32,000 bases of DNA from Alkalilimnicola ehrlichii MLHE-1 (GTDB lineage Bacteria > Pseudomonadota > Gammaproteobacteria > Nitrococcales > Halorhodospiraceae): assembly GCF_000014785.1 (NCBI RefSeq), contig NC_008340.1, forward strand, positions 1,980,001 to 2,012,000, read 5' to 3'. The notes beneath the pieces are model-generated. The model was not told the DNA's origin, searched no databases, and saw only the letters and a list, made by a program, of their open reading frames with translations. The position numbers and the translations under genes were made by a program. Every line of letters begins with the position of its first letter. Within the stretch, counting starts at the first letter, position 1. This document shows positions 2,488 to 32,000 of the stretch, piece by piece.

Positions 2488-2618
2488 GGGCGCGCTGTTG
2501 TCTCCGGGTTCAGACGGGCGCACACCGCCGGTGCGGTGCCGCATTGCTGCTAATCTTCATAGTAGGCGTCTACCCGCGGTATGCCCCCCTACCCATGCTG
2601 ACAGCAGCCGGTGATACC

Positions 2619-3284: not shown

Positions 3285-3308
3285 CCCGGCCTGGCCACCG
3301 GGCCGTTC

Positions 3309-4436: not shown

Positions 4437-4488
4437 GACGTTACTATGGCAGACAGCCTGGGACCGTGGGGACGAGCCGGGCGGGGGC

Positions 4489-5379: not shown

Positions 5380-5474
5380 GGTTGAGTCCTCTTCTGCCGG
5401 CTTCGGCCACCATGGCCGAGGAACGAGGCGGTACCTTACCGGGGCACCCGGTTTCAGGGAAGCCCGCCGGCCCC

Positions 5475-6428: not shown

Positions 6429-6521
6429 GGGGTTCACCGTCGGGAATGCCGATTTCCACTTCCAGAGTAGCCGCATTCCGCCGCCGACGCCCGCCACTCC
6501 AGCAACAGGGACACCAGGACC

Positions 6522-7946: not shown

Positions 7947-7970
7947 ACCGTGTTCGGGAACCGCAAGGCC

Positions 7971-7997
7971 CGGGTGCCGGGCACCACGCCCGGCACC
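7971..7997. terminator. GC-rich perfect hairpin between convergent genes (candidate bidirectional terminator, no U-tract)
   Basis: gggtgccgggc (7971-7981) and gcccggcaccc (7987-7997) are exact reverse complements around a 5-nt loop. The hairpin lies between the peptidase stop (7946) and the PhoU-like stop (8021). Neither side has a T-run. Confidence 0.4.
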
Positions 7998-8020
7998 CAA
8001 CGCTGGGCGTACCGCCCCTG

Positions 8021-8713
8021 TCAGCGCCGGGCCCGTTCCGAGGCCTCCTTCTCCGGATAGAAGTCCAGATCCTCGAGCCGCCCCAGCACCGCGGTGGCGA
8101 TATTGGCCAGGTGCCCGGCCACCCGTTTGTAGTGACGGGCGAGCAGCGAGTAGGCCATGGCCTCGTGGAACTCGATCTCGCCCTCGTCGTGGAAGAGCTC
8201 CGCGATCACCTCGTCGCAGCTCCTGCGGATCTCCCCGGCCTGCGCCAGCGCCTTGCCGGCCGCCGCCTCATCGGAGCGGGCCGTGGCCGCGATCACCCGG
8301 CTGAACATGCCGCGCATCGCCTCGGCCATGCGGTCCAGCGGGGCCTGATACTTGTCCACGTGGAAGCCCTCGGTGTAGAGGCAACCGATCTCGAAGACGT
8401 TCTTGCAATAGTCGCCAATGCGCTCGGCATCCTTCGCCACGCTCATCAACGCCAGGCAGATGGCCACATCGTGGCCGGGGTTCACGGTCAGGTGGCGCAA
8501 TACCTTGCGCCGAATGGAACGCTCCAGCTCATTAATGGACTGGTCGCGGTCGTAGAGCGGCTGGCGCACCTCGTCGGCCGGGGTCTCGCTGTAGAGCACC
8601 TCGTTGGCGCGGGCGAACATCCAGGCGCCGTGTTCCAGCATGCGGGTCAGGTCCTCAAAGGCCCGGTCCAGGGTGTTCTCCGAGGTCAGCGCGCTGTAGA
8701 GCTGTCGAAACAT
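8021..8713 (-). CDS. PhoU-domain protein (Na/Pi transporter-associated regulator-like)
   Basis: 230 aa with two PhoU-type repeats (AKDAERIGDYCKNV and ARHYKRVAGHLANIA). It lies 27 nt downstream of the Na/Pi cotransporter gene on the same strand. Confidence 0.8.
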   Translation of the reverse strand: MFRQLYSALTSENTLDRAFEDLTRMLEHGAWMFARANEVLYSETPADEVRQPLYDRDQSINELERSIRRKVLRHLTVNPGHDVAICLALMSVAKDAERIGDYCKNVFEIGCLYTEGFHVDKYQAPLDRMAEAMRGMFSRVIAATARSDEAAAGKALAQAGEIRRSCDEVIAELFHDEGEIEFHEAMAYSLLARHYKRVAGHLANIATAVLGRLEDLDFYPEKEASERARR

Positions 8714-8740
8714 GGGGAAAACCTCGCGTCAGGCCGCGCC

Positions 8741-9982
8741 TCAGCGCAGGCCCATGAACAATTCGATGGCGCCAATACCCAGTAGCGGTACCACCAAGAA
8801 TACGCCAAACAGGAACAAGAAGGCGTAGCGCGGCTTGCGTCCGGCCAGATCGCCGTACCAGAGGGCGAGCTTCAACGGGATGCGGCGCAACGGGTACCAA
8901 ATCATGGTCCCGGTCACATTGAAGGTGACGTGGAACAGCGCCACCGTCATGGCCGCGGCAATGGGATTGGCGGTGGCCGCCAGCACGCTGGTCACCGTGG
9001 TGCCCAGGTTCGCCCCCATCATGAAGGGCAGCACCCGGCGGATACGCACCACCCCGGCGCCGGCCAGAGGCACCATCAGGCTGCTGGTGATGGTGCTGGA
9101 CTGCACCAGCACCGTGGAGACCACCCCGACTCCGTAGGCGCGCAGGTCGGTGCGGAAGAAGTAGGTGCGGAACAGCCCGTCCATGTGGCGCAACAGGGCC
9201 CCGCGCAGGTTGTGCACCATGAAGATCAGGGCGATGAACATCAGCGCCAGGCCGATGGCCGCCACCAGCAACCCCTCGCCGGCCGTGGTCGGCATCACCC
9301 AGGCCCCCACGGCGTCCACCGCCTCCACCACCGGCCGCGTGACCACCTTGACCGGGCTGTCCGGGCGCGGCACCTCCTCCAACCCGATCAGGCCACTGAC
9401 CCAGGCCGCAAACTGGGTAAACACCCCACGCCCGGTCTCGTGGGCCAGGCCGGTGAGCCATTCGATCGGGAAGATCAGCATGACCGTGAGGATATTGAAG
9501 AAATCGTGCAGGAGTGCGGCGGTGAACGAGCGGCGGAAGTTGCGGCGGATGCGGATGTTGGCCAGTGCGACGATCACGCCGGTCACCGCGGTGCCGATAT
9601 TCGCCCCCATGATGGCGAACACCCCGGTGCCCAGCGTCATCTCGCCACTGGCCACCAGGGTGACGATGAGCGCCGAGGTGAACGACGAGCTCTGCACCAC
9701 CATGGTGACCATTACCCCGGCCAACAGGGCGATGAAGGGGTTCTCGCCGTAGGCGAAGGCCCGCACCAGGAAGTCGCTGTCGCCGCCGAAGGTGCCCAGA
9801 CCAGAGCCCAGCACATTGAGGGCGGCGAGGAAGAGGTAAAGACAGAGCCCGGCGTAGAGGCCGCGCATCCAGGCAGGCACCTCGCGGCGCTGCTCACGGG
9901 CCAGGGCCGGGCTGGCGGCCGTCGGGGGCGGGGGTGAATCGTTTTTCAACATAGGCACGCTGTCTGTCCACGGCAAGACCAT
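8741..9982 (-). CDS. Na/Pi cotransporter family protein
   Basis: 413-aa polytopic membrane protein with the duplicated Na/Pi-cotransporter signature (VQSSSFTSALIVTL... and VQSSTITSSLMVPL...; GANIGT / GANLGTT). An alternative ATG is at 9952. Confidence 0.87.
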   Translation of the reverse strand: MVLPWTDSVPMLKNDSPPPPTAASPALAREQRREVPAWMRGLYAGLCLYLFLAALNVLGSGLGTFGGDSDFLVRAFAYGENPFIALLAGVMVTMVVQSSSFTSALIVTLVASGEMTLGTGVFAIMGANIGTAVTGVIVALANIRIRRNFRRSFTAALLHDFFNILTVMLIFPIEWLTGLAHETGRGVFTQFAAWVSGLIGLEEVPRPDSPVKVVTRPVVEAVDAVGAWVMPTTAGEGLLVAAIGLALMFIALIFMVHNLRGALLRHMDGLFRTYFFRTDLRAYGVGVVSTVLVQSSTITSSLMVPLAGAGVVRIRRVLPFMMGANLGTTVTSVLAATANPIAAAMTVALFHVTFNVTGTMIWYPLRRIPLKLALWYGDLAGRKPRYAFLFLFGVFLVVPLLGIGAIELFMGLR

Positions 9983-10655: not shown

Positions 10656-11033
10656 TTAATCGCCTGCCTCTCCGGCGGGCCGGGGGACCTCATGAGCGCT
10701 CTCCGGGGGGCGAAAGAGCGCGCGCTGGGCCACGTAGAGCAACAGCAGGGTAGCCGCCAGCCAGGCGAGTACCCAGGGGCCCGGGTGCGCCCAGTAGGCG
10801 CCGGCCACGGTGAGGTTGCTGAGCAGCATGGCGTTGCCGAAGGCGGTGCGGCCGGGGCGATCACCCGCGTAGGCGGCCAGCAGCATCAGCGCCAACCACA
10901 GGCCCAGGAGGATGGTGAGCGCCAACCACCAGCCCTGGTGGCCCAGGGCGAGCAGGCCCAGCGTGGCTGGCCACTGCAAGAGGGCGAAGGCGTAGGGGTC
11001 GGCGAGTCGTCGTTCCAGGTGCGAGCTATCCAT
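10656..11033 (-). CDS. Small integral membrane protein (about 4 predicted TM helices), last gene of the operon
   Basis: 125 aa. Hydrophobic stretches lie at about residues 14-31, 35-56, 64-82 and 86-103, followed by a hydrophilic charged tail (RPPESAHEVPRPAGEAGD). ATG 11033 lies 9 nt after the toxin's TAG (TAGGGGACCTGAATG, with GGGGA as SD). Confidence 0.6.
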   Translation of the reverse strand: MDSSHLERRLADPYAFALLQWPATLGLLALGHQGWWLALTILLGLWLALMLLAAYAGDRPGRTAFGNAMLLSNLTVAGAYWAHPGPWVLAWLAATLLLLYVAQRALFRPPESAHEVPRPAGEAGD

Positions 11034-11042
11034 TCAGGTCCC

Positions 11043-14000
11043 CTAGCTGCGTCGAAAGAAATGGACATGAAAGGCATCGGTCTTGCGGGCCGCCTCCCAC
11101 TGGGCGTCGGTCATCCTGGCCTCCTTCTTCAGCGTAGCGCTCCGCCGGTAACCGCCATCCGGCCGATTGTCGACAATCGCCCGTGCCAGGTCGTGATCCA
11201 CCCCGTCCAGCTCGGCCAACCGGCCGACATTGTCCGCACGCTTGGCCGCAAGGGCCTCGTCGTCGATATAGAACCGGGTCTTGGGCCGGGCGCGGATGCT
11301 GTAATCATCCAGGGCGTTCGCCTTGAAACGGTTATCCACCTGATGGCTCGCCACCGTGCCGGCGGCCTTGCCGTCCGGCGTTATCTTCTCCGAGCTGCAG
11401 TCGAGGGTCCGGGGGATCCGCTGCTCCGCCTGGATGATATCCGCGATCACGTCGGCGTCGGTATCGCCCTCCTCCGTCCGGTGGGCTTCGGCCTCCGCCA
11501 CCAGCGGGTGTGATACGCCATAGTTGGCGGTGACGATGTAGTTAACGGCCTGTCCCCCTTCCACCGCGTCCTTGACCGGGTCTTCAAACCGGTGAAGCAT
11601 CGATTGTGAATCCCGGTTGTTGGCACCCTGCGTGAGCGGCGTCAGGTTGTCCCAGGTATCCCCCGGGCCGCCCAGATGCTCATTCAACAGGTGCCCACGG
11701 ACATAGTAGGTACCCCCGCCGTCCATGCGCCGCCGCAACAGGTTCCAGCTCTCGTTCTCGGGCGCATTACGCGGCGTGCTGCCGGTCGGATGGTCGCGGG
11801 TCAGCAACTCCACCCGCACCGAGCTGCCGAAACCCGCCGCGGTTCTGGGGCCGTAGATGGCCGGCGTGGAAGGCAGGTCGGCGACCGAACCCCCGGTGGA
11901 CTGCTCCAGCAGCTCCCGGGTCAGGGTCGAGAGCTGGTCCATGGCCTCATCCATCCTGTTCTTGAGTGCCTTGCGCTTCTCCGTGTAGGTCGGCTCGTCG
12001 ATGGCCGAGGCCTCCAACTGGCCCTCCAGGTCGCGGGACTCCCCGATAAGCCCCTCCACCGCTTCCGCGGCCGCCAACGCCCGTCGGCGGGTGTCGGCGG
12101 CGTCGTCCGGCAGTTTCAGGGCGGCGATGAATTCGGCGTAGGGGGTGGGCCGCGACTCGATGGTCAGCGCCTGGCGCTCCTTCTCCGCGTCGATGGACAG
12201 GGTATGCCGTTCCCCGCCCTCGGTCTCCACCTCGCGCTCGGCCTGCCACCAGTTGACCAGGGCGCGGGCCCCGCGCCGCACCGCCCGCCCCCCGCGGCGG
12301 GCCAGCTCCACGAAGCCCTCGCCCAGGCGCAGGGCGCGCTCGATGAGCCAGTCGAGGGCGGCGTCGACCCGCTCGCGGATCCCCTCCACCATCTCGCGGA
12401 TGCGGCTGCTGACATCCCCCAACCCGGCGTAGTGGGCCAGGAAGGCCAGCGCCGGAGGCACCGCCCGGCCCAGGGCATCCTCCAGGTAGTCGGCGGCCTT
12501 GCCCAACGCCCCGGAGGCGATCTCGGCCACCCCGGCCAGGAAGCGGTTCGCCACCTCCAGCAACGCCCGCAACTGGGCGGTCAGCGCCGTGATCACCCGG
12601 TAGAGCTCCATCACCAGGGCGATGACGTTGGAGACCCCGGTGGGGGCGAGCAGCGGGGTGAGCCGGATACTGGCCTGCTTGATGATGGTGACGCTCACCC
12701 AGTTGATGATGCTGTCCAGCACCTGCCCGCCCAGATCGCTCAAGCGCTCCCGCAACGCCGCCCACAGCGCGCCCGGCCCCTCCTCGACCAGGGTGCGCAG
12801 AAACTGCCAGGCGCCGGAGGCGTGTTCCAGCATCCGCCGCATGCGAAGCGCCACGCCGGAGCCCACCTGGCGGCCGATGCGGTCGAAGATCCGGTCGGTG
12901 GTGATATCCAGGATCTGCAGCACCACCCCGAGGATCGAGCGCAGGGAGAAGTCCTCCGGCGGCTCGATCCCGCCCTTGCGCAGGGTGCCGAACAGCCAGC
13001 CGGCTATCCCCGCCTTGAGGTGGCCGACGATGTTGCTGAAGAACTGGGAGAAGCCGCGCCCGGCCGCCCGCACCAGGTTGAGCAGGAAGCCGATGGGGTC
13101 CTGCAGGATATGCCCGATGGCCGCCGCGGCGTTGGCCAGGAGGCTGACCACCAGCTCGGGCGGCAGCCCGATCAGCCGCAGTGCGGCCTGGAAGAAGGCC
13201 CAGGCGGCCGCGGCGAGATCTCCGTCCACGAACAGCTTGCGCAGTATCTCCATGGCCTTGGCCTTGACCTTCTCCCAGAGGTCCGGGAGGGCCAGGAGCT
13301 GGCCGAAGACCGGGATGCGCGCCAGTATCTGGTTGACGATGAAGTCCTGCACCGGCTTGCGGATGCACTCCGGGATCAGCCGCCAGGCCGCGGACAACAC
13401 CAGTTGCGGCAACTGCATCAGGTCGGTCACCACCGAGAGCAACCGGCGCACCACGCCGATCATCCGCTCGATGAAGGGCGTCAGCCGGTCAAAGCCGGCG
13501 ACCAGGCCGTCGAACAGCTGCTTTACCCCGCTCTCCGCCCAGCGGCTGAGCCCGGCGATGCCCCGCTCCAGCCAGCCCAGCGCCCGCGCCAGGGGCCGGG
13601 TGATGTCCAACTGGCGCAGACCGGAGAAGAAGGCCGCCACCTTATCCCCCACCCCGCCAAGCCGCTCCACCAGCCAACGCCCGGAGTCGACCAGGAGGCC
13701 CCGCACCCGCGCTAGCACCGCTTCCACGGTGGGCAACGCGTTGGCCAGCGCCGCCCGGTTCTCCGCCACGCCAGCGCCCGGCCCGCCCTCCTCGCCGGCC
13801 CCCGCCATCTGCTGCTCGGCCGTGCCCAGGTCGTTGCTGAGCGCCTGCATGTCCTCGCCCAGGCGCTTGACGAAAGCGGGCGGCACCAGCTCCCGCAGCC
13901 ACTCCACGCCCTGCTGTATGGGCTGCCAGAGCGGCCGGGTGCGTGCCTTGATCCAGTCCCACGCCTCGCCGGCCTTGTCCTGCACCCAGCCGACCAGGCC

Positions 14001-15389
14001 GCCCTGATCGTTTCCGCTGCTGTCGTTGCTGGATCCGAATAGCTTGCCCTTGACCCAGTCCCAGGCCGCACCCAGGGTCTCGCGAATGGGCCGCGTCCAG
14101 TTCCAGATCCGACGGCCGAGGGCCTTGATGCCGTCCCAGAGGTCACCGGCCACCCCGGTGATGAAGTCCAGGGCGCGGGCACCGGTGCTCTCCCAGAGAT
14201 CGGCGAAAAAGTTACCGACGGGGGCGAGAAAGTCGGTGAGCCGGTCCCAGGCCGCCCCGGCCGCATCGGTCACCAGGGTGCGCAGCCGCCGGATGGCATC
14301 GAACAGCGGCCCGCAGTCCCCCGAGGCCAGCGCCTCCACGATGGCGCCCGCCCGCTCGAGCATGCCGGAGAAGAGCTCGCTCAGACGCTCCACCGACCCC
14401 TCGGGCGTGAGCCGGGTGACCGCCTCCACCAGCCGGTCGAATACGGCGGCCACCCGGTCCTTGAGCCACCCCACCGGGCCCTTGTCGATGATCTCCTGGA
14501 GTATGGGGGCCAGGTTGGGGGCGAGCTTCTCCACCACCGCCATGCCCTTGGAGGCAATGAAGTTGCCGGCCTTGTCGAAGATATCGCCCACGGCCCCGGT
14601 GAGGCGGTCGTACGCCCCCTTGGCCATGTCGATCCCGGCCCCCACCAACCGGCGACCACCTCGGCGCAAGCTGTCAATCCAGGACCGCCGCACCGGCGGG
14701 GCAGTGGCATCCTGATGGTCCACGCCCGCACTGCGCTGCTGCACCACGTGGGTCAGTTCGTGGGCGATGAGCCGCCGGCCGTCACGGCTGTCGGGCCGGA
14801 AGGCGCCGCGGTTGAAGGCGATGTGCTCGCCCAGGGTGAAGGCGTGGGCGTGGATGGCCTCGGAGAGGCGGGCGGCCTCGTCGTCGGTGTGTATGCGCAC
14901 CGCGGAGAAATCCTGCCCGAAGCGCGGCTCCATGAAGGCGCGCAGGTCCTCCGGCAGCGGGCGCCCCCCCTGCTGCAAGTGTCCGATGCGCCGGGCCAGT
15001 GGTTCCGGCAGGGCATCGGCCGCGCCGGGGGCTTCCTCCTCCCGCTCCTCCGGCAGGGGGACGGGGGCGTCCGCCGGCGCGGCACCGTGCGCCCCGCTCG
15101 CGACCGGAGCGGTGGCGGGAGGCGCCCGGCGGGCGGCATCGGGCGACCCGGCGCCGGGGGCCGTCGGGTCGTCCGATGCCGGCGCCGGGCCGCGGGTCAC
15201 CCGCTCGGCGGTGCGCTCGGCCTCGCGCTCCAGCGGGTCGTCGCGGGCACCGAGCTTGAGCCGGGGCTGGAGGCCCGCCTGGCCGATCACCGCGGCGATG
15301 GCCGCGCGCTGGCTATGGGGCTTCGCCACCGGCTGCGGGCGCCGGGCCGGTGCCGGTTGCGCGCGCTGTTGCTGGGCGAAGGCCACCAT
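11043..15389 (-). CDS. DUF4157 domain-containing polymorphic toxin with C-terminal DNA/RNA non-specific (EssD/YeeF-like) nuclease domain
   Basis: 1448 aa, ATG 15389 preceded by GGGGGAG. Domain order: a Pro/Ala-rich N-terminus; the DUF4157 signature (EPRFGQDFSAVRIHTD...AFTLGEHIAF...LIAHELTHVVQQ); an approximately 950-aa helical, Trp-rich middle (AWDRL / AWDWVK / AWDWIK); the nuclease motif YYVRGHLLNEHLGGPGDTWDNLTPLTQGANN...AVNYIV; and an HhH-like tail. Confidence 0.85.
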   Translation of the reverse strand: MVAFAQQQRAQPAPARRPQPVAKPHSQRAAIAAVIGQAGLQPRLKLGARDDPLEREAERTAERVTRGPAPASDDPTAPGAGSPDAARRAPPATAPVASGAHGAAPADAPVPLPEEREEEAPGAADALPEPLARRIGHLQQGGRPLPEDLRAFMEPRFGQDFSAVRIHTDDEAARLSEAIHAHAFTLGEHIAFNRGAFRPDSRDGRRLIAHELTHVVQQRSAGVDHQDATAPPVRRSWIDSLRRGGRRLVGAGIDMAKGAYDRLTGAVGDIFDKAGNFIASKGMAVVEKLAPNLAPILQEIIDKGPVGWLKDRVAAVFDRLVEAVTRLTPEGSVERLSELFSGMLERAGAIVEALASGDCGPLFDAIRRLRTLVTDAAGAAWDRLTDFLAPVGNFFADLWESTGARALDFITGVAGDLWDGIKALGRRIWNWTRPIRETLGAAWDWVKGKLFGSSNDSSGNDQGGLVGWVQDKAGEAWDWIKARTRPLWQPIQQGVEWLRELVPPAFVKRLGEDMQALSNDLGTAEQQMAGAGEEGGPGAGVAENRAALANALPTVEAVLARVRGLLVDSGRWLVERLGGVGDKVAAFFSGLRQLDITRPLARALGWLERGIAGLSRWAESGVKQLFDGLVAGFDRLTPFIERMIGVVRRLLSVVTDLMQLPQLVLSAAWRLIPECIRKPVQDFIVNQILARIPVFGQLLALPDLWEKVKAKAMEILRKLFVDGDLAAAAWAFFQAALRLIGLPPELVVSLLANAAAAIGHILQDPIGFLLNLVRAAGRGFSQFFSNIVGHLKAGIAGWLFGTLRKGGIEPPEDFSLRSILGVVLQILDITTDRIFDRIGRQVGSGVALRMRRMLEHASGAWQFLRTLVEEGPGALWAALRERLSDLGGQVLDSIINWVSVTIIKQASIRLTPLLAPTGVSNVIALVMELYRVITALTAQLRALLEVANRFLAGVAEIASGALGKAADYLEDALGRAVPPALAFLAHYAGLGDVSSRIREMVEGIRERVDAALDWLIERALRLGEGFVELARRGGRAVRRGARALVNWWQAEREVETEGGERHTLSIDAEKERQALTIESRPTPYAEFIAALKLPDDAADTRRRALAAAEAVEGLIGESRDLEGQLEASAIDEPTYTEKRKALKNRMDEAMDQLSTLTRELLEQSTGGSVADLPSTPAIYGPRTAAGFGSSVRVELLTRDHPTGSTPRNAPENESWNLLRRRMDGGGTYYVRGHLLNEHLGGPGDTWDNLTPLTQGANNRDSQSMLHRFEDPVKDAVEGGQAVNYIVTANYGVSHPLVAEAEAHRTEEGDTDADVIADIIQAEQRIPRTLDCSSEKITPDGKAAGTVASHQVDNRFKANALDDYSIRARPKTRFYIDDEALAAKRADNVGRLAELDGVDHDLARAIVDNRPDGGYRRSATLKKEARMTDAQWEAARKTDAFHVHFFRRS
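11142..11225 (-). other. Helix-hairpin-helix-like DNA-binding motif at the toxin C-terminus
   Basis: LAELDGVDHDLARAIVDNRPDGGYRRSATLKK resembles the ComEA-type HhH (L..LPGIG...A..I...R..NG.F.S...L). Confidence 0.5.
11487..11804 (-). other. beta-beta-alpha-Me nuclease toxin domain (Endonuclease_NS_2 / EssD-YeeF type)
   Basis: RGHLLNEHLGGPGD-x3-NLTPLTQGANN matches the RGHLI..LGG.G..NL.P....N core that I recall for EssD/YeeF-type toxins. The RGH triplet is encoded at 11691-11699. Confidence 0.7.
14736..14963 (-). other. DUF4157 (zincin-like) domain with HExxH motif
   Basis: Residues about 143-218 of the toxin. HELTH is encoded at 14748-14762 (cacgaactgacccac on the minus strand). Confidence 0.8.
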
Positions 15390-15413
15390 GGCTCCCCCTG
15401 CCGGCGAGCCGGC

Positions 15414-24577: not shown

Positions 24578-25405
24578 TCAACCGGTCAGCACTTTCATCG
24601 ATAGGGTGCTCATCTCGCCCTGGGGCAGCGGCGGCGAGGTGGGGCTTCCGGAGACGGACGACGTGTGCACATGGGTGGCGAACAGGCTCAGGAAGCTCTG
24701 ACCCTTGATCAGCGGCTCGCCGCCGGCCCCGCCCAGCATCACCTGATTGCCATCGAGCACGATCTGCGCGCCCTTCACGGTCACGCCGCTCGGCGCCATC
24801 TCGATCTTGTTGCCATTGGCGTCCTCCACGGTGGTGCCGGTGGTGGTGAGCACCAGGGTGTTGCCGTTGGCATCCTCCACCCGAAGCTGGTTGTTCTCGG
24901 CGTCCAGCACCACGGTGGCGCCGCCGGCGTCGGTGAGCGTCAGCCCCCCTTCCGGGTTCATGTCCACGTGCGCGCCGCCGCCGTGCTCCAGGCGCACCTG
25001 TTCGGCATCGTCCCGCTCCTCGAAGACCAGCCGGTGGCCCTTGGGGGTGCGGAAGACCCGGGTGCTGGGTGCGGCATCGGACTCGCGCGCCACCTCGTCG
25101 GGCACCTCCTCGGCGTTGCGCCAGAAGGTGCCGGTCCAGATGGGGTGCTCGGTATCGCCCCCCTCGAACTCCACCCAGACCTGGGCGCCCACCTCGGGCA
25201 CCGAGAACAGCCCCTGGCCCTCCTTGCCGCCAAAGGGCAGACAGGGCAGCGCCCAGTGACTGATGCGATCCCCCCAGACGGACGGCACCCGCACCTGGAC
25301 CCGCCCGCGCCGCTGGGAGTCGGCGTTGTCCACCACCACCCCGCGGTACTTGCCGTAGCGCCGCTCCTGGGCCTGCCGGACCAGTTGCTTGATGACATCG
25401 TCCAC
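24578..25405 (-). CDS. Phage baseplate assembly protein V (gp5/gpV-like OB-fold plus beta-helix spike)
   Basis: GTG 25405 is preceded by GAGGAGGA. The OB-fold region reads YGKYRGVVVDNADSQRRGRVQVRVPSVWG...WALPCLPFGG...VPEVGAQVWVEFEGGDTEHPIWTG. A beta-helical repeat region and a C-terminal HVH (24665-24673) apex motif follow. Confidence 0.85.
   Translation of the reverse strand: MDDVIKQLVRQAQERRYGKYRGVVVDNADSQRRGRVQVRVPSVWGDRISHWALPCLPFGGKEGQGLFSVPEVGAQVWVEFEGGDTEHPIWTGTFWRNAEEVPDEVARESDAAPSTRVFRTPKGHRLVFEERDDAEQVRLEHGGGAHVDMNPEGGLTLTDAGGATVVLDAENNQLRVEDANGNTLVLTTTGTTVEDANGNKIEMAPSGVTVKGAQIVLDGNQVMLGGAGGEPLIKGQSFLSLFATHVHTSSVSGSPTSPPLPQGEMSTLSMKVLTG
24810..24880 (-). repeat. Direct repeat inside the spike beta-helix (VEDANGN x2)
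   Basis: ttgccattggcgtcctccac (24810-24829) and ttgccgttggcatcctccac (24861-24880) are 20-mers with 2 mismatches, 51 nt (17 aa) apart. They encode the repeated VEDANGN strand. Confidence 0.7.
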
Positions 25406-25453
25406 CGTCGTCCTCCTCTGTTGCGTTGCCCGTTGGGGCCCGCCGCCGCCCGT

Positions 25454-26608
25454 TCAGAGCACCCCCGCCAGCCGGGAAGCGACCGGGGCGGCGGTCTCCA
25501 CGTTGTCGCCGTAGGCGTTGCGCAGCAGTTGAAAGCGCTGGAAGTAGCCGTCGGGGCTGAAGTGATGGGCCACCCGGTCGACGTAGTAAAGCCCGCTCAG
25601 CCGCTCGCCCAGGCCGTCCACCGGCACCGGCCGGCCCGGGCGCAGCACGTGGCCGTAGAGGCTGCCGTCCAGCTCGCCGTCGGCCTGCAGGCGGTGCAGG
25701 TCGTATTCGTTGATGCGAGCCTGGGCCCGGGCCTCGAGCTGCTCGGCGGCATCGCCCCCCTCCCCGCTCAGGGTGTCTACATTGGGCTCCAGGCCGCCGC
25801 CCCGGCTGTCGGCCCGCTCCGGCCCCATGGGGGGCAGCGTGGAGAACATCTGCAGCGTGCGCGAGTCGTCATCCTCGCGCTCCGCCGGCACCTCCACCTG
25901 GAGCAGGTCCGGCAGGTGGCCGTCGGCGCTGACGTTGAGCCGCAGGCAGTTGGTGGCCTGGCCGGCGTAGACCTGGATGGTGGCCTGGGCCCCGGCGCCG
26001 TCCAGGCGGTAGGGCCCGAAGTAGACCTCGTCCGGGTAGAAGATCAGCTCGTAGTTGTTCTCCTCGGCGCGCTTGCGCAGGAACTGGATATCGGAGCTGT
26101 CCTGCGGCAGTTCCACCAGCCCCTGCTGGCCGCTCTTGCTGTCCGGGCTGAGGGCGAGGCCGTAGTGGCTGAGGATCTCCTCGATGATCACCCGGTCGCT
26201 GACCGGGGCCTCCTCGTCGCCCCAGGGCTCGCGCTGGTGGGTGCGGTCCAGGCGCAGGGACTGGTCCTGGCACTCGACCACGACCTCCGCCTCACCGGCG
26301 CTCTCCGGGAAGTCGGCGTTGACCTCGCGGATATAGCCCTTGAACAGGCGCTCCTCGTCATCGCCGAAGACGATGGCCAGGGTGATCTCCGCCCAGGGCC
26401 GCAACAGCGCGTCGTCCTGGATACCCCAGCTCCCCAGCTCATCGCGCACGGTGGCCAGGCGCAGGGTCGCGGTCCAGGCCTCCTCCCGGCTGGTGTCCAC
26501 CTCCAACTCGCGGAGGAAGGGGTAGTACTCCGGCACCTCCTGGTCGTGGAGGTAGATCCGGCACTCCGCCGGGGCCCGCTGTTCGCCGCTGAGCAGATCG
26601 AGCACCAT
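25454..26608 (-). CDS. Phage late control gene D (gpD / gp27-like hub, VgrG N-terminal-like) protein
   Basis: 384 aa. LFKGYIREV..., ...QDSSDIQFLRKRAEENNYELIFYPDEVYFGP... match the gpD/VgrG-N pattern (SD..FL.RLA...G). ATG 26608 is preceded by GAGGGAG. Confidence 0.78.
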   Translation of the reverse strand: MVLDLLSGEQRAPAECRIYLHDQEVPEYYPFLRELEVDTSREEAWTATLRLATVRDELGSWGIQDDALLRPWAEITLAIVFGDDEERLFKGYIREVNADFPESAGEAEVVVECQDQSLRLDRTHQREPWGDEEAPVSDRVIIEEILSHYGLALSPDSKSGQQGLVELPQDSSDIQFLRKRAEENNYELIFYPDEVYFGPYRLDGAGAQATIQVYAGQATNCLRLNVSADGHLPDLLQVEVPAEREDDDSRTLQMFSTLPPMGPERADSRGGGLEPNVDTLSGEGGDAAEQLEARAQARINEYDLHRLQADGELDGSLYGHVLRPGRPVPVDGLGERLSGLYYVDRVAHHFSPDGYFQRFQLLRNAYGDNVETAAPVASRLAGVL

Positions 26609-26611
26609 GGC

Positions 26612-26911
26612 CTACTCCCTCGCCCGGGGGATCAGCAGCGTCTCGCCGGCGTATTCATCCAGCAGGATCACGCCGGCGAAGAGCAGGTCCGGGTTAGCGT
26701 CGATAATCCGCCACCACAACCGGCTGTCGCGGTAGTAGTAATGGGCCAGGGCGTCCAGGCGTTCGCCCTTGGCGATGGTGTGTTCGATCACGCCGCTGGC
26801 CGGCCCGATGGCGCGTGGCCGGATCCCCGGGAAGTCGGGCTCGCCGTCGGCCCCCGCGCTGAAGCGGCGGGCGGCGCGGGGTTTATGGTAGCGGGACTGG
26901 CGCAACAGCAT
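26612..26911 (-). CDS. LysM / phage tail protein X-like protein
   Basis: 99 aa. HTIAKGERLDALAHYYYRDSRLWWRIIDANPDL is a LysM-type (gpX-like) motif. ATG 26911 overlaps the upstream TGA by 1 nt (TGATG). Confidence 0.78.
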   Translation of the reverse strand: MLLRQSRYHKPRAARRFSAGADGEPDFPGIRPRAIGPASGVIEHTIAKGERLDALAHYYYRDSRLWWRIIDANPDLLFAGVILLDEYAGETLLIPRARE

Positions 26912-27564
26912 CAGCTCATCCCTCCAGACAGATGGCCGGGGGCGGTGGCACTGTGCAGCGCCGCGCTGGCGGCCTGGCGGATCTTCTCCTCGCGGTAGAA
27001 GGGGTTGTTGCCCTCGATGACCTGCAGGCTCAGGGTCACCGTCGCCCGGTAGGGCACCAGGCTGGGCAGGTGCGCCGTCTCCTGAACGTCGATGCCCTTG
27101 AGAAAGACCGGCAGCACATGACTGCCCCAGAGGAACAGCAGCACCGAGGCGCTCTCGTCGCGCTGGAAGGCGCGCTGCCCGCCCATGCCCAGGCTGGCCA
27201 GGGTCTGCATCCCGTCCGGGCCCTGCACCTTGGGCTCGACCATGGAGCGCAGGGTGTCCAGCTCCGGCTCCACCCCGGAGGCGCTGGCCACCGGGTCGCC
27301 CTGCCCCATGCGGTCGGTCGCATCCAGGAGGATCTCCACATCGAAGCCCTCCGGCTCCACGCTCACCCCCTGGGAGACGCGGGGGGTCTCGGAGGGCGAC
27401 TGGAAGTCGTAGCCGCCCCGGGTGGCGGGGGTGTCGGCCAGGGTGATCTCCACGCTGCGGCTGCGCGATAGGGTCTCCGGGTTGAACTCGAAGACCAGGG
27501 TGAGCGGGGAGGCGCTCTGCGCGTACTCCACCAGGACGCCGCGTACATGCCGGCCCATGGTCAC
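26911..27564 (-). CDS. Contractile-injection-system tube-initiator-like protein (Afp7 N-terminal-domain-like)
   Basis: 215-217 aa. VLVEYAQSASPLTLVFEFNPETLSRSRS carries the F.FNPE motif I associate with CIS tube / tube-initiator proteins. Start is GTG 27564 (GTGA overlap) or ATG 27558. Confidence 0.62.
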   Translation of the reverse strand: MTMGRHVRGVLVEYAQSASPLTLVFEFNPETLSRSRSVEITLADTPATRGGYDFQSPSETPRVSQGVSVEPEGFDVEILLDATDRMGQGDPVASASGVEPELDTLRSMVEPKVQGPDGMQTLASLGMGGQRAFQRDESASVLLFLWGSHVLPVFLKGIDVQETAHLPSLVPYRATVTLSLQVIEGNNPFYREEKIRQAASAALHSATAPGHLSGGMS

Positions 27565-27791
27565 ACCGCCCCCGGCAGCTGCGCCCGGATGGCGCGGGCG
27601 ATGCAGTCGGCAGCCTGTCGGTCGCTGGCCCCGGCGGGCAGCGTCACCGGGCCGACCTGGAGCCGGGCCAGGTCCGCCGATCCGGCCGTGGGGGCGTCCG
27701 CCAGTGCCCGACCCAGCAGGCGTACGATATGCGGCGCGCGCCCGGCGTAGCCCTCGGGCAGTTGCAGGCGCAGGTGGTGGATATCAATCAT
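27561..27791 (-). CDS. Small hypothetical protein (76 aa), translationally coupled
   Basis: ATG 27791 lies inside the ATPase 3' end (CATGATTGA, 8-nt overlap), and its TGA overlaps the next gene's GTG. Sequence MIDIHHLRLQLPEGYAGRAPHIVRLLGRALA... No family recognised. Coding status rests on its position and the coupling. Confidence 0.5.
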   Translation of the reverse strand: MIDIHHLRLQLPEGYAGRAPHIVRLLGRALADAPTAGSADLARLQVGPVTLPAGASDRQAADCIARAIRAQLPGAV

Positions 27792-29136
27792 GCAGCACCT
27801 CCTGAGGCAGGTGGGGAGCCAGATCACCCAGCTCCCGGGGGGTTTGTTCCCGGCCGTCCTTGCCCAGCTCCCGCCAGACCGCCAGGGCGACCTCCGCCAG
27901 ACCGATGGCGCACTCCCGCCCGGCGGCCAGGTAGGCGGCGTGCAGGGCGGCATTGCGGATACCGCCGCCGGTGAGGTTGACTGAGCGGGCCAGCAGTTCC
28001 AGATCCAGGTCGGGCGCCCGCGGGGCCCGCGGCGGCAGCAACCGGCCCCACAGTGCGGCCCGCCCGGCGACGCCGGGGCGCGGGAAGGTCACCACCATCT
28101 GAAAGCGGCGGGCAAAGGCGCTGTCCATCTGCTTGCGCATGTTGGTCGTGAGGATGCAAGGGCCCCGGTGGGCCTCGATGCGCGCCAGAAGATGGCTGAC
28201 TTCCATGTTGGCGTAGCGGTCGCGGGCCTCCTTGACCTCGCCCCGCTTGGCGAACAGGGCGTCGGCCTCGTCGAACTGCAGCACCATGGGCTGGCGGTGG
28301 GCGGCGTCGAAGAGCTGGTTGAGGTTCTTCTCCGTCTCACCGATGTACTTGCTGACCAGGCGCCCCAGGTCCACCCGGTAGAGCGGCCAGCCCAGGCTGT
28401 TGGCAATGACGCTGGCGGCCAGGGTCTTGCCGGTGCCGGAGGGGCCGTTGAACAGCGCGATGGGCCCGCCCACCGATTGGCCGCCCCAGCGCTCCACCAC
28501 CGTCTCCCGGTGCTGCAGCCACATCAGATACTCGCGCAACTGGGCCCGGTGAGGGGCCGGCAGCACCAGGTCGTCCCAGCCGGCGGGGTTGTCCACCGGC
28601 ACCGCACCGGGGGGCGCCGGCGGCGCCTGGCGGACGCCGCGCAGGCGCGCACCGAGGCCGGGCTCCGGGGTGAGCGGCGCGTAGGGATCGCCGTCGCGGG
28701 CGCGCAGCAGGCCGCGACGGCGCAGCGGTGCGCCGGCGTCCAGGGCCTGCTCCAGCAGCCGGGCCTGGTGCGGGGCGAGCGCCAGCAGCTCCTGGACCAG
28801 GGCCCGCGAGGGGTAGGGCTGCGGGCTGCCCGGTTGCAGATTCTGGAACATCCAGCCCACCCGCGGCTCCATATCGGGCCCCAGGACGCAGGCCAACAGG
28901 TCCCACTCGACAGGCTCCAGGCCCAGCCCCAGGGCGCGCTCCCAGGCACCGTCCGGGGCCCGTAGCCGCTCCACCTGGTGTTGCAGCCGCTGGAGCTGCT
29001 TCAGTGCCGGCCGATCGGGGTCCTGGCCCTGACGGCTGCGCGACAGGCAGTAACCGAGGTATTGCAGCCGGTCCCACTCCGGCTGCAACTGCTCGGCGAT
29101 GGGCAGGGCCTCGTCGGCGGCGGCCGCGGCGTTCAT
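27784..29136 (-). CDS. AAA+ ATPase (Afp15/Pvc15-like eCIS assembly ATPase)
   Basis: 450 aa. Walker A GPSGTGKT (28423-28446), Walker B VLQFDEAD (28261-28284), then YIGETEKNL and ILTTNMRKQMDSAFARRF (second region of homology), preceded by an approximately 220-aa non-ATPase N-domain. ATG 29136 overlaps the DUF4255 stop (ATGA). Confidence 0.9.
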   Translation of the reverse strand: MNAAAAADEALPIAEQLQPEWDRLQYLGYCLSRSRQGQDPDRPALKQLQRLQHQVERLRAPDGAWERALGLGLEPVEWDLLACVLGPDMEPRVGWMFQNLQPGSPQPYPSRALVQELLALAPHQARLLEQALDAGAPLRRRGLLRARDGDPYAPLTPEPGLGARLRGVRQAPPAPPGAVPVDNPAGWDDLVLPAPHRAQLREYLMWLQHRETVVERWGGQSVGGPIALFNGPSGTGKTLAASVIANSLGWPLYRVDLGRLVSKYIGETEKNLNQLFDAAHRQPMVLQFDEADALFAKRGEVKEARDRYANMEVSHLLARIEAHRGPCILTTNMRKQMDSAFARRFQMVVTFPRPGVAGRAALWGRLLPPRAPRAPDLDLELLARSVNLTGGGIRNAALHAAYLAAGRECAIGLAEVALAVWRELGKDGREQTPRELGDLAPHLPQEVLHD

Positions 29137-30146
29137 GCGCCCTCCTGGTACAGGGTGATCAGCAGCGGGTTGGAGCGCCGCAGCAGCGTGCGGCCGTCGG
29201 TCGCCCGCGGGTAACTGCGCTCGGCATAGAGCAGTAGCTGGCCGGACCGGTCATCGAAGGGCAGCGCCACCGTGTGCAGGCTGGCGTCCGCCAGCCCCTC
29301 GGGGTGGATGGCCGCCTCCGTCAGGGTGACCTCGGTGCCCCCAGGGTGGGGCTGCCAGCCCTGCTGGTCGTCCCAGACCTCCCAACGCAGGGTGACCTCG
29401 GTACCGGGCTCTCCCACCACCCAGACCTGCGGGGTAAACCCTGCCAGTTCGTCACTGCCCACGGCGAAGGTGAGCGACTGCACCAGGGCCCCCTGGTGCA
29501 CCAGGCTCGCGGCCGGGGCCCAGTCCTCGCGACCGGTCTCGGGACGCATGCGGGTGACGGTGGCGCCGGCGGTGGTGGTGGTGCCACCCCCGGCCATGCC
29601 GCCCACCTCCAGGCCCAGGGTGCCGACCCGGGGCGGCTCCACGTGGCGATGTTGCGGGATCACCGGTGCCAGCGAGACCTCGAACAGCACCGACGGGCGG
29701 TAAATGGTGTCGCCCTGGGTGGCCCAGAGCTGGTTGATCTGCTCCACGCCCAGCGTCTGGAAGACCACCTGCAGGTGGAAGGGCTCACCGTCCGCCTCCA
29801 ACTGGAACACCGGCGTCTCCTGGAAGACCCGCAGCACCTCGCCGATGATGCGCAGGTCGTTCTCGCCGCTGCTCACCGCCTCCTCGGCCACCGCGAAGGG
29901 GGTGGCCAGGCAGTACATGCGCAGGTACTGGGTCTCGCCCGGCAGGGTGTCACCATCAAAGCCGGAGGGCTCGAAGCGGAAGAAGAAGAGATTGAGGTTG
30001 TGTTCGCCATCCTGCTCGGAGGTGGCCGCATCCCCCGGGCTGCCCAGGAGCACATGGACCTTGGTATCCAGACCGTCGAACTCGCCACCCAGGTATTGCG
30101 CCAGGCCCTTGCAGACCTGGGCCACGGAGGAGGCCACCAGGGCCAT
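29133..30146 (-). CDS. DUF4255 (Pvc16/Afp16 N-terminal-like) tail terminator/cap-like protein
   Basis: ATG 30146 lies 8 nt after GGAGG; the ORF-track TTG at 30152 is less likely. MALVASSVAQVCKGLAQYL...VHVLLGSPGD...HNLNLFFFRFEPS matches the DUF4255 pattern (...NL.LY.I..N). A C-terminal beta-rich extension follows. Confidence 0.78.
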   Translation of the reverse strand: MALVASSVAQVCKGLAQYLGGEFDGLDTKVHVLLGSPGDAATSEQDGEHNLNLFFFRFEPSGFDGDTLPGETQYLRMYCLATPFAVAEEAVSSGENDLRIIGEVLRVFQETPVFQLEADGEPFHLQVVFQTLGVEQINQLWATQGDTIYRPSVLFEVSLAPVIPQHRHVEPPRVGTLGLEVGGMAGGGTTTTAGATVTRMRPETGREDWAPAASLVHQGALVQSLTFAVGSDELAGFTPQVWVVGEPGTEVTLRWEVWDDQQGWQPHPGGTEVTLTEAAIHPEGLADASLHTVALPFDDRSGQLLLYAERSYPRATDGRTLLRRSNPLLITLYQEGA

Positions 30147-30148
30147 CG

Positions 30149-31201
30149 TCAAAACCTCCGCAGGTAGTTACGGGAGAGTGCGGCGCGATCCGATGTCGAT
30201 GGGCGGCGCCCCTTCCGGGCCGGGGGGTCGGCGTTGACCACCACCACCTCGACCTGGCCGATGCGGACCTGTGGGGTTGACCGGGCCGCATGCGTCGACT
30301 CCGGGCCGGGCTCCGGCGCGGGGCCGGCGTGGAAGGCGGCGCCGTCGCCGGAGGGGTCGCCGGACGGCTCCGCCCGGGTGACCGCCTCGACGGGCTCGGG
30401 TGCTGCCGCCGGCTCGGGCCGGTCCGCAGTGGCGGTGAACCCGCCCGTCGAGGGCGCCCCGACAGGGGCCGGGCCGGACGCCGGAAACCCCTCAGTGGCC
30501 GGGGCCTCCGGCGGGTCGGTCCGGTCGACCCCGCTCGGCGGAGCACCGGTGCCCCGCCGGGGGCGGGTATAGGGTTCAGAAGGGGTGTCGGCTCCCGGAT
30601 TCCCTCTCGTTGACCGCTTGCTCACACTGGCGTTTGAGTCAGCTGTCTCCAGTCGTCTTGCGGTTGAAGGACTTTCCTTTTCATTGCCGGTTTCCGTGAC
30701 TTCAGCCTTCACGCTCAGTCTTTCCTTTTCCAAAGTCGTCGAAGCACTGTGTACGTCTACGGACCGTGCGTTGTCGTCAACCGTTGCAGACCGATCAACA
30801 GATCCTCTTTCACCTGCGATCCCATTGCGGTCACGCACGGCAGTCGCCGGTTTGTTCATCGACCCAGTCTTTCCATTTACCGTAGTTCGACGTTCAACAT
30901 ACTGCTCCCCGGCGACGGGGGGCCCGGCCTCTGCCCTGTGACGGGCGCCGGGCAAAGGGAGAGCGGTATTGCCGGAGGGTGCTCTCCCGGCCGGCTTACC
31001 GCGCTCCGACACCTGGGGAGGTCGCCCCTCCCCGGCCTTCTGAAACCGGTACACGGTTGCTGCACCGTCCTCGTCCTCCTCCGGCGGTGGGGCCGGACTC
31101 TCGTCCGGCTCCGCCTCCCCGGCGGGGCTGCGCCAGAGGGTGGTCCCCCCCGGGCGAAGGGGACGGCGCGCGTCCCGCAGAACATCGTGTAAAAAGCGCA
31201 T
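30149..31201 (-). CDS. Pro/Ala-rich low-complexity protein; candidate tape-measure/length-determining protein
   Basis: ATG 31201 is preceded by AGGAGG. 350 aa, mostly low-complexity, with a charge- and Ser/Thr-rich core and a conserved-looking C-terminus (VRIGQVEVVVVNADPP...). The tape-measure assignment comes from position only. Confidence 0.5.
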   Translation of the reverse strand: MRFLHDVLRDARRPLRPGGTTLWRSPAGEAEPDESPAPPPEEDEDGAATVYRFQKAGEGRPPQVSERGKPAGRAPSGNTALPLPGARHRAEAGPPVAGEQYVERRTTVNGKTGSMNKPATAVRDRNGIAGERGSVDRSATVDDNARSVDVHSASTTLEKERLSVKAEVTETGNEKESPSTARRLETADSNASVSKRSTRGNPGADTPSEPYTRPRRGTGAPPSGVDRTDPPEAPATEGFPASGPAPVGAPSTGGFTATADRPEPAAAPEPVEAVTRAEPSGDPSGDGAAFHAGPAPEPGPESTHAARSTPQVRIGQVEVVVVNADPPARKGRRPSTSDRAALSRNYLRRF

Positions 31202-31220
31202 GCGGCCTCCTTGCGATGGC

Positions 31221-32000
31221 CTATTGCGTCATCCCCCTGGCGCGGTCGATCAGCCTGAGATAGGCCTCGCGCCGTTCCCGCGGAAGGTCCAGGATCTCCC
31301 GCTCGCTCCAGTGATAATGCGTGGCCAGATTGTGCACCTGCGCCAGCAGGCTGTCCGGGGCGCGCCCCAACAGGCTGTAGGGGTTAAGCACCACGCGGTT
31401 GTCGTGTTCGCAGTGCGGGCACGGCGCCTGCGCCTGGCTGACCACCCCGGGCGAGACGGCGTCCATGGCCCGGTCGACGGCCTCGTGCCCCGCCTCACCC
31501 AACTCGGCCACGTCGGCCCCACTGGGGGCGAGCAGGCAGCGCTGCAACAGGGCCTCCACATCACCGGCCTCGGCCAACGACTCCTGGTCAGCGCCGTTGG
31601 GCAGGCGAAAGCGCCAGTTCCGGCCCTGCCAGTCCACCGCCACCTCCGGAAAGGTCGGCCCCGCCGGATCGGTGGGCAGGCAGGCCAGGTCGAGCTGAAA
31701 GTCGAAGGCCTCGCCACAGCCGGCACAGCGGGCCGACATCCAGGCGTGGCGCTCACCAAAGTGCACCGCCAGCGCACGCATGAGGTGCTGGCGGTCGGCC
31801 ACGCACAGGCGGCGCACCCGCTCGGTGCTCGCCGGCCCGCCGGCCAGCGCCTCCAGCGCGGTGGCCAACACCGCGGTCACCGCCGCGGGGGTGGAAGGCG
31901 CGGTCCGGGCCGCTTCGAGCAATGCCATCTCCAGCGCCCCGTCCACCGGCTTGAAGCGGAAGTCCCGTCGCCGCTCGCCCGCCTCCAACAGTCCTCCCGG
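31221..32000 (-). CDS. Zinc-ribbon-containing hypothetical protein of the tail-like operon (5' end possibly outside the window)
   Basis: The frame is open to base 32000; the ORF-track start at 31988 is a TTG. Two CxxC pairs about 100 aa apart (CAGCGEAF and CPHCEH). The C-terminus reads HYHWSEREILDLPRERREAYLRLI. TAG at 31221 is 17 nt before the next gene's SD/ATG. Confidence 0.6.
   Translation of the reverse strand, partial: PGGLLEAGERRRDFRFKPVDGALEMALLEAARTAPSTPAAVTAVLATALEALAGGPASTERVRRLCVADRQHLMRALAVHFGERHAWMSARCAGCGEAFDFQLDLACLPTDPAGPTFPEVAVDWQGRNWRFRLPNGADQESLAEAGDVEALLQRCLLAPSGADVAELGEAGHEAVDRAMDAVSPGVVSQAQAPCPHCEHDNRVVLNPYSLLGRAPDSLLAQVHNLATHYHWSEREILDLPRERREAYLRLIDRARGMTQ

Follow-up and report, generated by a model that had tools for sequence, protein, structure and literature searches.

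Gene content and extent of the locus

The DNA analysed here is a stretch of 32,000 nucleotides from the genome of Alkalilimnicola ehrlichii MLHE-1 (contig NC_008340.1, positions 1,980,001 to 2,012,000, referred to below as the window), which probably contains all but two of the 18 genes of a contractile injection system (CIS) belonging to lineage II of the Afp/PVC superfamily. The 16 open reading frames (ORFs), designated G1 to G16 (Table 1), lie on the minus strand in an unbroken series running from window position 32000 to 10656, in DNA of about 70% G+C, and the whole locus occupies 23,489 bp. A preliminary description, made from the sequence alone, had reported 16 coupled genes on one strand and had quoted the junctions between them, and all of these ORFs and junctions were found as placed. 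Read on the minus strand, the junctions comprise ATGA at 20044-20041 and 29136-29133, GTGA at 24187-24184 and 27564-27561, TGATG around 26911 and ATGATTGA at 27791-27784, while the remaining intergenic gaps in the G1 to G16 series measure 1-48 nt. The sequences of the 4-nt overlaps are present, but a gene caller run on an identical public contig (L082, see below) places the starts of G3 and G6 two codons later, at ATG, so that two of these overlaps become 2-nt gaps. Since the genes are tightly coupled and most of their products belong to a recognised family, a chance pattern in GC-rich sequence is excluded.

The sheath and tube genes had been predicted to lie past position 32000, a prediction set beforehand as a test of the assignment, and both were located there within about 2.1 kb. 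The contig that carries them, L082 (9,035 bp), was retrieved by exact-protein look-up of G2; its positions 2497-9035 align with window positions 32000-25462 (6,539 bp) at 100.000% identity and with no gap, and its first 2,496 bases therefore represent the DNA just past window position 32000. L082 encodes one sheath protein of 524 amino acids (Phage_sheath_1 and 1C; PHROG 23, E 3e-56) and one gp19-type tube protein of 169 amino acids (Phage_T4_gp19). The term “downstream half”, previously applied to the genes in the window, is thus not appropriate, as only two of the genes lie outside it. The complete G1 gene occupies L082 2485-3276 and encodes 263 amino acids; as its true ATG is located 12 nt past window position 32000, the TTG at 31988 is internal.

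The first 352 bases of L082 (2,145-2,496 nt past position 32000) form a non-coding leader, of which bases 61-352 have a G+C content of only 48%. Probably the locus is transcribed as a single operon from this AT-rich leader, some 2.1 kb past the end of the window. A sigma-70-like site (TTGACG-16-TAGACT) is present in the leader at L082 232-259, flanked by two copies of the palindrome CCCCATGGG (L082 169-177 and 291-299), and TTCnnTGACGGCGG occurs twice in the leader, 161 nt apart. The CCCCATGGG and TTCnnTGACGGCGG repeats could be operator sites or could have arisen by chance.

Table 1. Positions in the window of the CIS genes, with the evidence on which each designation is based
Feature	Position	Strand	Evidence and remarks
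G1, T4 gp26/gp51-like baseplate-hub assembly protein	31221..32000	-	BFVD fold matches, synteny; 263 aa
G2, low-complexity protein in tape-measure position	30149..31201	-	alignment; 350 aa
G3, tail terminator/cap (Pvc16/Afp16, DUF4255)	29133..30152	-	Pvc16_N E 2.3e-16
G4, single-domain AAA+ ATPase, Cis15-type	27784..29136	-	AAA E 2.5e-25
G5, 76-aa protein without family	27561..27791	-	called as gene on L082
G6, tube-initiator-type tube protein	26911..27564	-	CIS_tube PF19266
G7, LysM/tail-X-like baseplate protein	26612..26911	-	Phage_tail_X, PHROG 7145
G8, gpD/gp27-like baseplate hub	25454..26608	-	weak Phage_GPD and VgrG_rel, position
G9, gpV/gp5-like central spike	24578..25405	-	Phage_base_V E 3e-24
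G10, gp25/gpW baseplate wedge	24184..24576	-	GPW_gp25 E 1.8e-12
G11, first baseplate-J-type wedge, 394 aa	23003..24187	-	TIGR02243 E 1e-26, PHROG 6
G12, second baseplate-J-type wedge, 986 aa	20041..23001	-	Baseplate_J, TIGR02243, PHROG 6
G13, P2 gpI-like baseplate protein	18353..20044	-	Tail_P2_I
G14, tail fibre/receptor-binding protein, 967 aa	15414..18317	-	N-terminal DUF6519 (eBAP5)
G15, Tme-like cargo/effector, 1448 aa	11043..15389	-	eCIS_core, tape-measure PHROGs, nuclease fold
G16, 125-aa protein, about four hydrophobic segments	10656..11033	-	conserved partner of G15

The 10.6-kb left flank of the locus is of a housekeeping character and encodes phosphoribosyl pyrophosphate synthetase, a phosphoribosyltransferase, a PGA_cap protein, an AP endonuclease and an M20 peptidase, together with PhoU, a Na/Pi cotransporter and a CBS protein. 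Two further minus-strand ORFs in this flank, at 1426-2544 (372 amino acids) and 5475-6806 (443 amino acids), belong to no Pfam family at E <= 0.001. The second of these shares about 285 nt with the start of the M20 peptidase gene, which is encoded on the opposite strand, and its translation therefore probably begins further downstream. The window contains no tRNA gene or Rfam element that might mark an island boundary.

Related loci and conservation of gene order

A scan with G1, restricted to one genome per species, provided 80 related loci that span many phyla, among them Pseudomonadota, Actinomycetota, Chloroflexota, Acidobacteriota and Nitrospirota. In 78 of these loci less than 400 nt separate the end of the tube gene from the G1 homolog downstream of it, and in 77 both the sheath and the tube gene precede that homolog. 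The nearest relative, L002, is a metagenome-assembled genome of Marinobacter in which G1 to G12 are syntenic, with amino-acid identities of 50-81%, and in which sheath and tube genes lie directly upstream of the G1 homolog and are themselves preceded by unrelated genes. Relatives that were found via the toxin G15 show the same gene order from gp25 to G16. The genes upstream of the sheath gene vary from one relative to another (chaperonin, TonB receptor, histidine kinase, HipA, RHS), so that the conserved unit has its 5' border at the sheath gene.

Several features of the DNA upstream of the sheath gene in individual relatives may be recorded here. In L002 an ORF consisting of a lone group II intron maturase domain (GIIM; 6937-7404) is found immediately upstream of the sheath gene, and genes for MtrB and a decaheme cytochrome are located further upstream. 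The betaproteobacterial or unclassified relatives L003 and L004 encode a sigma-54 enhancer-binding protein (Sigma54_activat and HTH_8) just upstream of the sheath gene, at 5786-6901 and 5551-6741 respectively, and in L003 a good sigma-54 promoter (TGGCACgcatcCTGCT, approximately 7083-7098) is followed by a small ORF. A sigma-54 promoter was not found in the Alkalilimnicola leader.

Structural and baseplate proteins

Searches of the window proteins against Pfam, NCBIfam and PHROGs profiles recovered the families that had been named on first inspection, namely the spike, gp25, two baseplate-J paralogs, gpI, an FNPE-type tube initiator, DUF4255, DUF6519 and DUF4157. The hub and the LysM protein are less straightforward. 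G8 matches Phage_GPD (E 0.005, 16.6 bits) and G7 matches Phage_tail_X (E 0.0016, 18.5 bits), in both cases under the Pfam cut-off; G8 additionally shows weak similarity to VgrG_rel and keeps its position in all relatives. Both designations are retained because position and synteny agree with them and, in the case of G7, because PHROG 7145 (baseplate wedge subunit) matches with an E value of 1.3e-10.

The remaining baseplate components are better defined. Sequence matches to the spike G9 in the Protein Data Bank (PDB) are the VgrG/Cis8 spikes of solved CIS, with weak matches to the VgrG family. Towards its C-terminal end G9 contains Gly/Thr-rich repeats followed by an H-V-H motif (residues 245-247); spikes of the P2 gpV type carry an HxH metal-binding apex. 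The larger of the J-type proteins, G12, matches Baseplate_J (E 1.6e-7), TIGR02243 (E 8e-42) and PHROG 6 (E 3e-22), a baseplate wedge subunit family shared with G11, and its best PDB match is the baseplate J protein of the Streptomyces coelicolor system CISSc (9GTP). G13 scores 27.4 bits against Tail_P2_I (cut-off 20.6), and G6, which is 64-79% identical in relatives, scores 30 bits against CIS_tube (cut-off 27).

G13 immediately precedes the fibre gene G14, whose product carries an N-terminal DUF6519 domain (E 4e-11) and is 83% and 50% identical in syntenic relatives. DUF6519 has been catalogued as eBAP5, a baseplate-attachment domain that anchors the fibres of extracellular CIS (eCIS), and Tail_P2_I proteins have been modelled as binding partners of eBAP3/eBAP5 fibres (PMC12923769). 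On this basis G13 is likely to provide the docking site for the fibre.

The function of G1 was approached through its predicted structure. Many G1 homologs carry PF12322 (T4_baseplate) and DUF6760; G1 itself has no significant Pfam match. The AlphaFold2 (AF2) model of the protein has a predicted local distance difference test (pLDDT) score of 95.6 and finds no fold match in the PDB, but in BFVD it resembles T4-like baseplate hub assembly proteins of the gp26/gp51 type (template modelling (TM) score 0.67-0.70, E 1e-12). Bacillus phage BCD7 is represented among these (TM 0.69; BFVD J9PUD8) and is also among the best phage matches to the sheath (29% identity, E 8e-52; JN712910.1 63587-65014). That one phage should match both the sheath and G1 hints at a myovirus tail lineage ancestral to this group of CIS.

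No Pfam, NCBIfam or PHROG family was found for G2, G5 or G16, even at permissive thresholds. Alignment of G2 with seven syntenic relatives revealed a conserved N-terminal motif and a conserved C-terminal motif (IGxxEVxVV...RNYLRRL) on either side of a hypervariable, low-complexity middle, and the total length of the aligned proteins ranges from about 300 to 510 amino acids. Its location in the tape-measure position suggests that G2 may act as a tail-length ruler. G5 is conserved in L002 to L004 (42-59% identity) and may represent a putative Afp6-like plug; many relatives have a DUF4157 or Tme-like gene in the slot that it occupies.

The AAA+ ATPase G4, which had been described as possessing an extra N-domain, indeed contains a weak N-terminal winged-helix-like domain (WHD, 24 bits) in addition to the AAA domain at residues 228-352, and its best sequence relatives in the PDB are the D2 domains of Cdc48/p97. 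The best NCBIfam match of G4, the anti-phage protein IteA, was rejected as it scores 97 bits against a cut-off of 510 and reflects generic AAA similarity. PDB searches found no sequence relatives of the cap G3, the fibre G14 or the cargo protein G15.

A probable tape-measure-related nuclease effector

The largest product of the locus, G15, is named in the NCBI annotation as an “eCIS core domain-containing protein”. DUF4157 is an established eCIS core and toxin marker (PMC8213781), but our analysis identifies G15 more specifically as a tape-measure-related nuclease effector. Residues 1-143 are of low complexity and rich in Ala, Pro, Arg and Gly, and are followed by the eCIS_core (DUF4157) domain at residues 144-221 (E 8e-34), with the sequence HELTH at position 210. 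Cargo proteins with a disordered N-terminus and DUF4157 reside in the lumen of the tube, and their loading requires the N-terminus and the ATPase (PMC8894135; 10.64898/2026.05.27.728243). The body of the protein (residues ~254-970) matches eight PHROG families annotated as tail length tape measure, the best with an E value of 1.3e-12. A hydropathy window picks out hydrophobic stretches at about 683-764 and 908-940, which score only 1.4-1.6.

The C-terminal part contains a region (approximately 1180-1300) that matches Endonuclea_NS_2 at 28.5 bits. An AF2 model of the C-terminal 390 residues (pLDDT 89) was compared with known structures by Foldseek, which returned NucA of Streptococcus agalactiae (4QH0) and EndA of S. 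pneumoniae (3OWV) with E values of 7e-6 to 2e-5, followed by EndoG. Invariant in 24 homologs are VRGH at 1230-1233 (including H1233), N1248, N1257 and E1269, which correspond to the pattern G-H-L, N, N, E. Both the modelled fold and the catalytic motif are those of a His-Me-finger nuclease of the EndA/NucA type, and G15 would thus be expected to have nuclease activity.

The closest precedent for this architecture is the Tme protein of Streptomyces davawensis, and a related effector class, Sle1, was described in 2026 (PMC13277306). The location of G15 is different from that of Tme, which is found immediately upstream of the baseplate genes, whereas G15 follows the fibre gene and is last but one in the locus. 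In 32 of the 80 relatives a DUF4157 gene is present in the slot between the ATPase and baseplate genes, which in A. ehrlichii contains only G5 (76 amino acids). At the level of BLAST, the similarity of G15 to the DUF4157 genes of distant loci, including those of Streptomyces, is limited to residues ~40-235.

Some relatives have an extra, shorter DUF4157 (eCIS_core) gene, encoding 375-495 amino acids, between the fibre gene and the Tme-like gene (L084 8922-10049, L086 2727-3854, L091 4468-5955, L092 4498-5946 and L093 2685-4037). It is absent from the window, and the arrangement recalls the Sle1/Sle2 pairing of Streptomyces. In L092 (10641-14938) the Tme-like gene is followed not by a G16 homolog but by several genes without a family and a gene for an endolysin-like Peptidase_M15_4 protein. 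These downstream genes may constitute a lysis or release module, one without a counterpart in the Alkalilimnicola locus.

A conserved membrane protein downstream of the effector

The last gene, G16, encodes a 125-residue protein with about four hydrophobic segments and only short soluble loops. Its relatives form an undescribed family of small membrane proteins. The family is small: clustering at 90% identity gives 19 clusters, a set of 1.84 billion proteins contains 53 representatives at 50% identity, and none of the 42 members scanned contained a Pfam family. The motifs ALLQWPA, FGNAM and AQR are strongly conserved. In all eight of the examined contexts that contain G16, a homolog of G15 precedes it, and G16 retains 60% identity in a case in which that of the toxin is no more than 36%. 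There is a precedent for a tape-measure-type nuclease effector with an immunity gene directly behind it, and possible roles of G16 are those of immunity protein, membrane adaptor and release factor.

Proposed mode of action and alternative interpretations

The gene content suggests the following scheme. The baseplate would be formed by the hub G8, the spike G9, the gp25 protein G10, the J-type proteins G11 and G12 and the gpI protein G13, by virtue of the homologies described above, and G1 probably aids its assembly in the manner of gp26/gp51. Polymerisation of the sheath and the gp19-type tube would be initiated by G6 and G7 and, for both structures, presumably terminated by the cap G3, at a length determined by G2 or else by the tape-measure-like body of G15. 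The ATPase G4 would, by analogy with Alg15/Cgo and Pvc15, recognise the disordered N-terminus of G15 and load the protein into the lumen of the tube. Binding of the target surface by the fibre G14, docked on G13, would be followed by contraction of the sheath and expulsion of the spike together with G15, whose nuclease domain would degrade nucleic acid in the recipient. The most likely part for G16 is to protect or assist the producing cell, whether as immunity protein or as accessory factor.

In this scheme the system acts outside the cell that makes it. We infer extracellular action mainly from the presence of the fibre gene. The closest solved relatives, judged by sheath and baseplate-J sequence, are non-extracellular systems that are cytoplasmic or membrane-bound. 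Other observations likewise count against the scheme or parts of it. The window contains no lysis cassette, and this, together with the conservation of a membrane protein, calls for caution as regards the extracellular reading; readable DNA upstream of the sheath gene amounts to 352 bp only. The hub and LysM assignments are based on matches below threshold. The literature searched holds no expression, particle or activity data for A. ehrlichii. Finally, a nuclease immunity protein would not typically be a membrane protein or be better conserved than its toxin, as G16 is, and one nuclease-bearing homolog of G15, from Ideonella, occurs without G16, which weakens the case for G16 as a strict nuclease immunity protein.

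The most serious alternative, although we consider it unlikely, is that the same genes encode a machine that is never released but acts from inside the producer, with G16 serving as its membrane adaptor. Such a machine might be docked at the cytoplasmic membrane and fire outward on contact, in the T6SS-like manner of Halogeometricum borinquense (T6SS, type VI secretion system), or it might fire into the envelope of its own producer, causing regulated death and release of DNA as in Streptomyces. The best solved sheath matches are indeed Cis2 of S. coelicolor and the H. borinquense sheath (9EZM), and the best J match is that of CISSc (9GTP). Both of these systems depend on membrane proteins encoded in their clusters (CisA and Hbor_38620), in S. 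davawensis the Tme-type nuclease has its role in the life cycle of the producer itself, and the conserved membrane protein G16 in a window without lysis genes would suit an arrangement of this kind. On the other hand, the A. ehrlichii locus has a DUF6519/eBAP5 fibre gene after the Tail_P2_I gene, whereas CISSc lacks a fibre and has CisA at the usual fibre-gene position. G16 tracks the toxin rather than the baseplate genes, and its short soluble loops contrast with the sizeable soluble domains of CisA and Hbor_38620. The double membrane of a Gram-negative cell would also be expected to hamper outward firing in the absence of a trans-envelope complex. Should G16 prove to be the adaptor of a cell-bound or self-directed machine in this Gram-negative bacterium, no earlier case would be known outside Actinobacteria, cyanobacteria and archaea.

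A further possibility, which we put forward only tentatively, is that in this proteobacterial clade G15 has a dual purpose, acting as ruler or lumen filler as well as nuclease payload, in a fixed pair with the four-helix protein G16, the latter being either a membrane guard or an adaptor for docking or firing. As a guard, G16 might conceivably block insertion of the tape-measure-like body into the membrane, a suggestion that is equally speculative.

It is highly improbable that the locus is the remnant of a defective myovirus prophage or an R-type tailocin, that is, a depolarising phage tail without protein cargo. Every structural gene has a phage-tail homolog, the sheath is approximately 30% identical to those of Bacillus phage BCD7 and Streptomyces phages, G1 has a phage baseplate hub assembly fold, and the body of G15 is homologous to phage tape measures. 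Nevertheless, sheath identity to phages does not exceed 31%, and a search of 50,697 phage genomes gave no match to the Pvc16/DUF4255 cap. As had been stated earlier, DUF4255, the dedicated AAA+ ATPase and DUF4157 effectors are markers of eCIS and not of prophages or T6SS, and the latter two are not markers of pyocins either. The absence of phage head, lysis and integration genes had likewise been noted: the genes of the window, including those of its 10.6-kb left flank, yielded no member of a capsid, portal, terminase, integrase or T6SS membrane-complex family, and the right side of the locus ends in the non-coding AT-rich leader. Nor were holin or endolysin families found in the window, or a flanking tRNA gene, and the 18-gene unit is conserved across phyla with different neighbours. 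Least likely of all is a canonical T6SS of types i-iii, to which a contractile sheath, tube, spike and baseplate with an AAA+ ATPase and a spike with weak VgrG-family matches might point, as the sheath is of the Phage_sheath_1 and not the TssB/TssC type, the TssJ/L/M, TssK, TssA and ClpV families were not found in Pfam and NCBIfam scans of the window proteins, and the Pvc16 cap, CIS_tube initiator and fibre gene present here are lacking from T6SS.

The type of locus, its marker domains and its class of effector have been described already, and the genome has been public for years. The literature searched contained no paper linking Alkalilimnicola with contractile injection systems, and the genus is absent from the searchable supplements. 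Systems with DUF4157 and DUF6519 had been called essentially uncharacterised; this is in part too sweeping, as DUF4157 cargo has been studied in AlgoCIS, S. davawensis (Tme) and haloarchaea and DUF6519 has been catalogued as eBAP5. The interest of the present locus is that it is compact and apparently intact, with a fibre and with a single sheath and a single tube gene, in a cultivable haloalkaliphile. The nearest characterised relatives in the literature searched, from Streptomyces and haloarchaea, are all non-extracellular, and a proteobacterial member that combines a DUF6519 fibre with a Tme-type nuclease would allow the release of fibre-bearing lineage-II systems to be tested. The locus also bears on which component sets the length of the tail, G2 or the tape-measure-like effector, and on the function of G16, and the conserved G15-G16 pair is a point of modest interest.

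Comparison with known systems

The Serratia Afp and Photorhabdus PVC (lineage Ia) share with the A. ehrlichii locus the sheath, tube, spike, gp25 and baseplate J proteins, an AAA+ ATPase, a DUF4255 cap and toxin genes at the 3' end. They differ in encoding three sheath paralogs (Afp2-4, Pvc2-4), each of which appears as a match of its own among the PDB sheaths, compared with one sheath and one tube gene here, and in possessing a PAAR gene (afp10 in the standard numbering), an Afp14-type tape measure on the 3' side and Afp13-type fibres. In the A. ehrlichii locus, which contains no PAAR gene, the cap and ATPase genes are located between the tube and baseplate genes, and the fibre carries DUF6519. 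Subtype IIb has been described in terms that agree with the missing PAAR gene and the divergent Afp12/13-like genes, an agreement that we treat only as a lead.

AlgoCIS of Algoriphagus machipongonensis is a truly extracellular particle whose cargo proteins (Cgo1, Cgo2) have a disordered N-terminus, DUF4157 and a variable C-terminal domain and reside in the tube lumen after loading aided by an AAA+ ATPase. The N-terminal layout of G15 is the same. AlgoCIS is nevertheless a much more distant relative, as its sheath matches the present one only over the C-terminal part (E 7e-42); it also has a PAAR-like tip protein (Alg10), lacking here, and a cap more complex than that of CISSc.

The sheath of the “archaeal T6SS” of H. 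borinquense (9EZM) is the second-best match (E 6e-79). This system, too, relies on DUF4157 proteins, in its case secreted toxins whose immunity genes lie directly downstream. It is, however, archaeal, contact-dependent and bound to the cytoplasmic membrane via a six-helix membrane protein, and its toxins presumably travel on the spike and not in the lumen of the tube.

The closest solved relative by sequence is CISSc of S. coelicolor (8BKY, 9GTP, 9GTS), designated a type IId eCIS by its authors. Its sheath protein Cis2 (8BKY/9GTP) matches over the full length with an E value of 6e-80, and its J protein is the best PDB match. The Streptomyces loci among the 80 relatives share with A. ehrlichii the order sheath, tube, G1-type protein, cap, ATPase, tube initiator, LysM, hub, spike, gp25 and J. 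CISSc is cytoplasmic, kills its producer, has no fibre gene and requires the bitopic membrane protein CisA, whereas the present locus has a DUF6519 fibre, a gpI gene, an effector at the 3' end and a different small membrane protein, in a Gram-negative gammaproteobacterial host.

A further Streptomyces system provides the nearest counterpart of the effector. Tme of S. davawensis is located between the ATPase and tube-initiator genes, in contrast to G15, which is placed between the fibre gene and G16 at the 3' end of the locus. The two proteins, each the product of the largest ORF of its cluster, have a common design in which DUF4157 is followed by a hydrophobic body homologous to tape measures and by an EndA-like nuclease, and Tme possesses the same RGH motif and H-N-N residues as G15 (PMC11126660).

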